Position numbers and translations under genes: made by a program. From Escherichia coli (GTDB lineage: Bacteria; Pseudomonadota; Gammaproteobacteria; Enterobacterales; Enterobacteriaceae), in the NCBI RefSeq assembly GCF_003334355.1, contig NZ_QOWP01000002.1: a DNA stretch of 64,000 bases. One strand, written 5' to 3'. The notes under the pieces are model-generated. The model saw only the letters and a program-made list of their open reading frames with translations. It had not been told where the DNA came from and did not search any database. Shown one piece after another: positions 44,990 to 46,120 of this stretch (its first letter is position 1; every line of letters begins with the position of its first letter).

Positions 44990-46120
44990 TTAGAACTGGT
45001 AAACCAGACCCAGAGCTACGATGTTATCAGTGTTGATGCCAGCGTCACGAGTGAACTGGTTGTCGTCCAGCAGGTTGATTTTGTAGTCAACGTAGGTGGA
45101 CATGTTTTTGTTGAAGTAGTAGGTCGCACCAACATCAACATATTTCAGGATATCTTCGTCGTCGTAGTTACGACTATTGATGACACCCAGGTTTTTACCT
45201 TTAGACTGCAGGTAAGCCAGGGACGGACGCAGACCAAAGTCGAACTGGTACTGAGCAACAGCTTCGAAGTTCTGTGCTTTGTTCGCCCAACCCAGGGAAC
45301 CTACGCGAGTTGCGTTGTAGGTCTGGGTGTACTGAGCAGCCAGGTAGATGTTGTTAGCGTCGTATTTCAGACCACCAGTGTAGGTTTCAGCACGGTCGCC
45401 AGTACCGATGTAGTTACGAACTACACCATTGCTGGTGTAGCTACCATTTTGATCATCAGTACGTTTGGAGCTGGAAACTGCAGCACCGATACCGAAGCCT
45501 TCGTAATCATAAGTGATAGATCCGCCGACACCGTCGCCATTCTGACGCAGAGCACCACGACCATTGTTGGTTATGCCTTCGCCGCTTACGCTACCGTTTT
45601 TGCCCTGGTACTGAACAGCAAAGTTCAGACCGTCAACCAGACCGAAGAAGTCGGTGTTACGGTAGGTCGCGAAGCCGTTACCACGCTGCTGCATGAAGTT
45701 GTCAGAACCGTAGGTGTCGCCACCGAATTCTGGCAGTACGTCGGTCCAGGAAGTTACGTCGTAAACAACGCCGTAGTTACGACCGTAGTCGAAAGAACCC
45801 ACATCCTGGAATTTCAGACCTGCGAATGCCACACGGGTCCAGGAGTTTTCTTTGTTGTCTTCAGAGGTATTGCCCTGGATCTGATATTCCCACTGGCCGT
45901 AACCGGTCAGCTGGTCAGTAACCTGAGTTTCGCCTTTGAAACCAAGACGTACATAGGTCTGGTCGCCGTCTTCTGACTTGTTGTCAGAGAAATAGTGCAG
46001 GCCGTCTACTTTACCGTACAGATCTAATTTGTTGCCGTCTTTGTTGTAAACTTCAGCAGCGTTTGCTGCGCCTGCTACCAGCAGAGCTGGGACCAGGAGG
46101 GACAGTACTTTAACTTTCAT
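44990..46120 (-). CDS. ompC: Outer-membrane porin OmpC, 376 aa (loop-variant allele)
   Basis: Signal peptide [21 protein letters not shown], porin beta-strand pattern, C-terminal LGLVYQF; 9 aa longer than the 367-aa K-12 protein as I recall it. Confidence 0.9.

Follow-up and report, generated by a model that had tools for sequence, protein, structure and literature searches.

Genes and regulatory elements at the ompC locus

The 64,000-nucleotide (nt) stretch of Escherichia coli DNA analysed here (hereafter referred to as the window; contig NZ_QOWP01000002.1 of RefSeq assembly GCF_003334355.1) carries an intact ompC gene within the gene order rcsD–micF–ompC–apbE (ftp)–ada, which is the order annotated in both K-12 MG1655 and ATCC 8739 (Table 1). 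The encoded protein scores 750.6 bits against the NCBIfam profile NF007841 ('porin OmpC'; cut-off 484), whereas the profiles of the paralogues OmpF (477.3 versus a cut-off of 583) and PhoE (452.9 versus 599) stay below threshold. The general bacterial porin family PF00267 is recorded for the exact protein, and solved OmpC chains in the Protein Data Bank (PDB) match it with E values down to 6e-216. The C terminus is that of K-12 and ends in VYQF, with the aromatic Phe of the β-signal. The region is a normal chromosomal ompC encoding a functional-looking 16-stranded trimeric osmoporin.

Table 1 Features of the ompC locus in the window (positions are those of the whole stretch; residue numbers are those of the encoded OmpC)
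Feature	Position	Strand	Remarks
apbE	43823-44878	-	Downstream of ompC
Intrinsic terminator-like stem-loop followed by a T-run	44952..44971	-	Downstream of the ompC stop codon
ompC coding sequence, intact porin	44990..46120	-	376 codons plus stop, ATG start; from the ORF list
L7, residues 310-322	45155..45193	-	Type f; 4 residues longer than K-12
L5, residues 220-242	45395..45463	-	Long b7 type; 8 residues longer than K-12
L4, residues 173-196	45533..45604	-	Short c-type; N>S, P>V, V>I and D>G versus K-12
Codon 183, ATA (Ile), in L4	45572..45574	-	Sole difference from the ATCC 8739 allele (ATG, Met)
L3 constriction loop, residues 117-145	45686..45772	-	Protein identical to K-12; pN 0.0025 across alleles
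L2, residues 83-92	45845..45874	-	4 substitutions and a 1-residue insertion versus K-12
L1, residues 46-55	45956..45985	-	SDNKSED type; D49S and V50E versus K-12; M57V in the adjacent strand
Signal peptide, residues 1-21	46058..46120	-	Identical to K-12 by alignment; invariant at synonymous and nonsynonymous sites in 19 alleles
ompC-micF divergent regulatory region (ompC 5' UTR, putative promoter and OmpR-binding sites by K-12 homology)	46121..46453		1 mismatch in 333 nt versus MG1655, at 46449
micF antisense small RNA gene	46454..46547	+	Rfam RF00033, 116.8 bits versus a gathering score of 79, full length
rcsD	from 46859	+	Upstream of ompC, beyond micF

The first-pass annotation had described the promoter and micF region as K-12-like, and the alignment to MG1655 agrees: apart from the single mismatch in the spacer, micF differs from its K-12 counterpart by one mismatch and one indel (~1%). 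A consensus promoter scan was uninformative on the ompC promoter (3 matches versus 3.3 in shuffled sequence), so the regulatory assignment rests on near-identity to K-12, by which the ompC promoter and OmpR-binding sites would be expected to function as they do there, in osmoregulated expression under OmpR/EnvZ. The micF terminator (46536-46547) was also recovered by a terminator scan. At 46536 the window has a C where K-12 has a T, leaving the stem perfectly paired and in agreement with the Rfam consensus; one base of its T-run is unlike K-12.

In the alignment with K-12, 5.7% of the aligned bases of ompC are mismatched and a further 51 columns are gaps. Corresponding values in the flanks are 0.3% in the ompC–micF spacer, 0.5% in the aligned parts of ada and rcsD, and 2.0% in apbE, and the apbE–ompC spacer has one mismatch in 111 nt. 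Within apbE, 21 of 1056 nt are unlike K-12, four times the rate in ada and rcsD, yet the gene is identical to apbE of ATCC 8739; in the aligned part of rcsD, all five mismatches versus K-12 lie within 25 nt (47500-47524). These patches beside ompC look like recombination patches. For the 24-kb neighbourhood from 34000 to 58000, the best match among 5,426 complete genomes, which do not include the source strain, is EC21Z-137 (99.5%), not ATCC 8739. The region is locally mosaic: its ompC and apbE are ATCC 8739-like, whereas the wider 24 kb is not.

A 348-aa open reading frame antisense to ompC (44930-45976, plus strand) was rejected as a gene and regarded as a by-product of codon bias: the antisense frame stays open because ompC has only one TTA, no CTA and one TCA codon, and all 19 ompC alleles compared have a stop-free stretch of 236–344 aa in this register. 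An IS element affecting ompC of ATCC 8739 was likewise rejected: in the RefSeq record, the gene is intact (376 aa) and its 738-nt spacer to rcsD is normal. In E. coli HZ13 (NZ_CP128609.1), the usual place of micF and rcsD is taken by an IS1 transposase gene, 293 nt upstream of ompC (310-1007 of the extracted locus), which probably alters the regulation of ompC and micF.

Differences from K-12 OmpC mapped on the porin structure

The window protein comprises 376 residues and MG1655 OmpC (NC_000913.3) 367, as the first-pass annotation had stated, and the five peptides quoted there are all found in the translation (residues 45-59, 83-94, 174-191, 217-247 and 309-327). Global alignment of the two proteins yielded 344 identities, 19 substitutions and 17 gap columns, and every difference stated in that annotation was confirmed. 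The gaps correspond to four indels relative to K-12: one additional residue in L2, four fewer in L4, eight more in L5 and four more in L7.

We located these differences on two independent maps, the strand and loop segmentation taken from the OmpC crystal structure (Beck et al. 2016, S1 Fig; PMC5056734) and an AlphaFold model of the window allele built with homologue representatives of 33–57% identity. The model has a pLDDT of 91.2 and a pTM of 0.87, and it superimposes on 2J1N with a TM-score of 0.97 and a deviation of 1.6 Å; Foldseek returned TM-scores of 0.95–0.98 to the OmpC structures 2XE1, 2J1N and 9WCB. The predicted structure consists of a 16-stranded barrel, in which a short break interrupts the first strand and the C-terminal strand closes the barrel, together with a long, helix-containing L3.

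All of the indels and 16 of the 19 substitutions fall in L1, L2, L4, L5 and L7 (16–17 of 19–20 when both maps are considered), a clustering with a hypergeometric P of 5e-12. The substitutions are distributed as two in L1, four in L2, four in L4, five in L5 and one or two in L7. Conversely, L3, L6, L8, the periplasmic turns and the signal peptide carry no amino-acid change relative to K-12, in the alignment or on either map. The remaining three substitutions, M57V, G>A at 213 and I>V at 215, are conservative and sit in barrel strands beside L1 and L5; the latter two travel with the long L5. The placement of the differences in external loops stands for all indels and 16 substitutions but is slightly overstated as 'only in loops', because three residues lie in strands.

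The L1 type of the window is also that of ET915, EA2, ST131 and A54H. L4 lacks the K-12 segment G181-S184 (GFTS or, equivalently, FTSG, depending on gap placement in the pairwise alignment). In the model, the residues inserted in L5 are predicted to project from the protein as a small β-hairpin, and the four added to L7 to lengthen the β14–β15 hairpin. Since L3 is unchanged and the barrel wall has only the three conservative substitutions, we expect the pore, solute permeation and hence the passage of antibiotics through OmpC to resemble those of K-12.

Frequency, mosaicism and selection of the allele

An ompC gene is present in all 5,426 complete E. coli genomes searched (5,426/5,426), with 87.7–99.9% identity to the window allele and lengths of about 363–376 aa. 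The closest is that of ATCC 8739 (WP_000865601.1; 376 aa), which agrees at 1130 of 1131 nt (99.9%), has all loop cassettes alike and is accompanied by the identical apbE; the single differing base turns codon 183 from ATG to ATA and thereby Met into Ile (M183I). Moreover, 298 complete-genome records have an ompC at least 99% identical to the window allele. NCBI already lists a protein identical over all 376 aa under the name 'porin OmpC' (OWD73390.1 and RCQ27351.1, among others), and it occurs on only 4–7 draft contigs, in the same gene context.

Beck et al. typed 2,707 OmpC proteins into 33 L4, 30 L5 and 13 L7 types (PMC5056734). In their S2 Table, the window L5 is exactly b7 and L7 exactly f, and L4 is type c6 with a Met>Ile exchange, without an exact match among the 33 catalogued L4 types. 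The allele is thus already known, from catalogued loop types and from its protein in NCBI, and was not generated in this strain. A 61-mer around codon 183 (ATA) had no exact match in the 5,426 complete genomes; from these comparisons, M183I appears as a rare, derived change and the only feature specific to this lineage. It is located at the tip of L4. That it is a recent escape mutation from an OmpC-dependent phage, colicin, CDI or antibody, and not a neutral rare polymorphism, seems unlikely to us.

We aligned 19 alleles spanning the identity range, together with their flanks. The window allele shows no difference from those of ET915 and EA2 over nt 1-300, which encode L1 and L2, but 19–26 differences over nt 521-760, which encode L4 and L5; compared with O145 RM8988, it is the other way round, 22 differences falling in nt 1-300 and 2 in nt 521-760. 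Among the 19 alleles, 2506 of 7626 informative site pairs failed the four-gamete test, none of 1000 permutations gave a value as low as that observed in a PHI-like test, and the five loops occur in 7–17 pairwise combinations of types. Divergence in ompC and divergence in apbE are uncorrelated (r = -0.18). The ompC gene is clearly a mosaic formed by intragenic recombination.

Some of the cassettes extend beyond the species. The L2 cassette QGNAPESENN is identical in E. coli and several Citrobacter species, and the longer (+4) form of L7 is the Citrobacter state, which suggests trans-species polymorphism or exchange with Citrobacter for this L2 cassette and this L7 form. The short L7 of K-12 accordingly looks derived. 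We also considered Citrobacter, whose OmpC is 376 aa as well, as the source of the long L5, and rejected it: the Citrobacter L5 is short and the extra length lies in L4. Separately, one 375-aa E. coli OmpC contains an extra copy of NGRGALRQ in L4, a change of loop length by tandem duplication.

Substitution rates were estimated by the method of Nei and Gojobori. The five variable loops have a dN of 0.159, a dS of 0.436 and a dN/dS of 0.36, both dN and dS being inflated by alignment uncertainty within these indel-rich loops, which are hard to align; in the strands and turns, the respective values are 0.0095, 0.147 and 0.06. Loop dN is hence ~17 times strand dN in the 19 alleles, and the loop ratio reaches only 0.36 because loop dS is itself ~3 times the strand value. 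L7 alone exceeds 1 (pN/pS 1.28), over few sites. Synonymous divergence is high beyond the loops as well: strand b9, situated between L4 and L5 and unambiguous in the alignment, has a pS of 0.32 and a pN of 0.007, and the pS of neighbouring apbE is 0.079, so that loop dS is ~4–5 times the apbE value. This deep synonymous divergence, including that of strand b9, therefore points to old haplotypes and not to recent substitutions. A region-averaged dN/dS is a conservative test, and site-specific positive selection in the loops is compatible with the averaged values.

We consider it highly probable that the window holds a common ATCC 8739-type allele, whose old loop cassettes were shuffled by recombination and have been kept by receptor-driven selection. 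L1, L2, L4, L5 and L7 would then represent one combination of old, deeply diverged cassettes, which homologous recombination would shuffle among E. coli lineages. Frequency-dependent or balancing selection on the receptor surface would keep the cassettes polymorphic, because phage tail fibres, CdiA toxins, colicins and antibodies would dock on the loops. Sequence identity, loop positions, allele frequency, mosaicism and the dN and dS values are direct results of the analysis; the selective agent, like the phage and CDI phenotypes considered below, is one that we infer. Loop hypervariability, the mosaic origin of the gene and the link to phages, CDI and immunity have already been published (PMC5056734; bioRxiv 10.1101/2021.09.21.461324).

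The first-pass annotation had read the loops as the product of diversifying selection on a surface antigen, which our results support only in part. Amino-acid change is indeed concentrated in the loops, but the loop dN/dS of 0.36, the frequency of the allele and the mosaic structure of the gene do not fit the simplest form of that reading, in which point mutations and indels recently remodelled the loops of a K-12-like ancestor in this lineage. The 17-fold excess of loop dN, the pN/pS of L7 and the position of the sole private change, M183I, in a contact loop would agree with such an origin, as would earlier genome scans (Chen 2006 and Petersen 2007, as cited in PMC5056734 and bioRxiv 10.1101/2021.09.21.461324) that called ompC positively selected. 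However, all but one base of the allele is common to ATCC 8739 and hundreds of genomes, loop dS is raised together with dN, and alleles that are unlike elsewhere have cassettes in common without a single difference in 300 nt; nor is K-12 the ancestor, given that Citrobacter also has the longer L7. For the allele as a whole, recent selection is largely refuted, and we regard it as very unlikely. An outright artefact, from a faulty version of the K-12 protein in the first-pass annotation or from a sequencing or assembly error, has a negligible probability. That annotation had indeed been made without database searches, and none of the complete genomes searched has the M183I base, but the real MG1655 sequence bears out the differences, the reading frame is intact and the exact protein recurs in independent public assemblies, and this reading is refuted.

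Relaxed constraint offers another account, in which tolerant loops gather neutral changes that recombination shuffles, with no receptor-driven selection at all. A loop dN/dS of 0.36 could also arise from nothing more than relaxed constraint on the loops: it stays below 1, strong purifying selection acts on L3, L6, L8 and the strands (0.06), and the contrast between the two could reflect the level of constraint alone. Neutral drift, however, has no account of a synonymous divergence in the loop region ~4–5 times that of the adjacent gene, or of discrete cassette families that run across phylogroups and even genera, and published experiments have established that OmpC loops decide CDI and phage susceptibility. 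We consider this account just as improbable as recent remodelling in this lineage, and favour old, recombining cassettes maintained by selection on the receptor surface.

Receptor type and relation to known OmpC proteins

Published work bears out the earlier statement that OmpC loops are contact sites for phages and antibodies, and adds CDI to these. Predictions for the window allele are extrapolated from related alleles that differ from it at several loop residues. Its nearest tested relative is OmpC of the uropathogenic strain A54H (PMC5056734), which has the same L1 and L2 and the same Val in b3, an L4 identical except at residue 183, an L5 of the long b family and the GVIN motif in L7. As machine-read from S1 Fig, the two proteins differ at ~4 residues (A54H/window): M/I at 183, I/T in L5 (b6 versus b7), G/S at the L7 tip (e versus f) and V/L in b14. 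L4 and L5 determine recognition by CdiA-EC536, and the A54H allele is resistant (Beck et al., PMC5056734); by analogy with A54H, the window allele probably confers resistance to CdiA-EC536 as well.

For phage T4, Washizaki et al. state that OmpC of O157, which has the same short L4, is not used and that the Phe of L4 is needed, both cited as unpublished data (PMC5221442). The only Phe of the K-12 L4 sits in the segment G181-S184 that is absent from the window protein, which suggests that T4 would not find its OmpC docking site on the source strain. The gp38 adhesin of phage PP01 contacts Ser225 and Pro226 in L5 and Val304-Arg308 in L7, and GVIN is required (PMC12892980). In the window protein, residues 312-315 are GVIN and the next residue is Ser, against Gly in O157; the Ser-Pro of L5 is missing, with the long b7 cassette in its place. 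PP01-like gp38 adhesins might therefore be only partly satisfied by this allele. The allele is useful as a receptor type, for phage choice, the interpretation of host range and strain typing, and for little beyond that.

Among solved structures, the best match is OmpC of O157:H7 EDL933 (9wcb; E value 6e-216), which shares the short c-type L4 and the GVIN of L7 with the window protein. In contrast, EDL933 OmpC has a short L5, whose 'SPL' is contacted by PP01, whereas the window L5 is 8 aa longer; L1 and L2 also differ, and the L7 tip residue is G in EDL933 and S in the window. The 9wcb entry, released in 2026, contains EDL933 OmpC together with the central tail fibre gpJ of phage A8, and provides a ready template for lambdoid-phage docking models on c-type L4 alleles like that of the window.

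A comparison with OmpC of K-12 MG1655 (b2215; 2J1N) shows that the two alleles share the locus, signal peptide, barrel, L3, L6, L8 and C terminus, with a near-identical regulatory region and micF, and that the window protein differs in being without the Phe-containing L4 segment and in its longer L5 (by 8 aa) and L7 (by 4 aa). This agrees with the published picture of OmpC, in which hypervariable loop tips occur in many combinations, generated by local recombination, on a conserved scaffold (bioRxiv 10.1101/2021.09.21.461324), and the same was seen in our 19 alleles. That study describes roughly 15 major OmpC groups, and the window OmpC belongs to one of them, with nothing substantive to set it apart.
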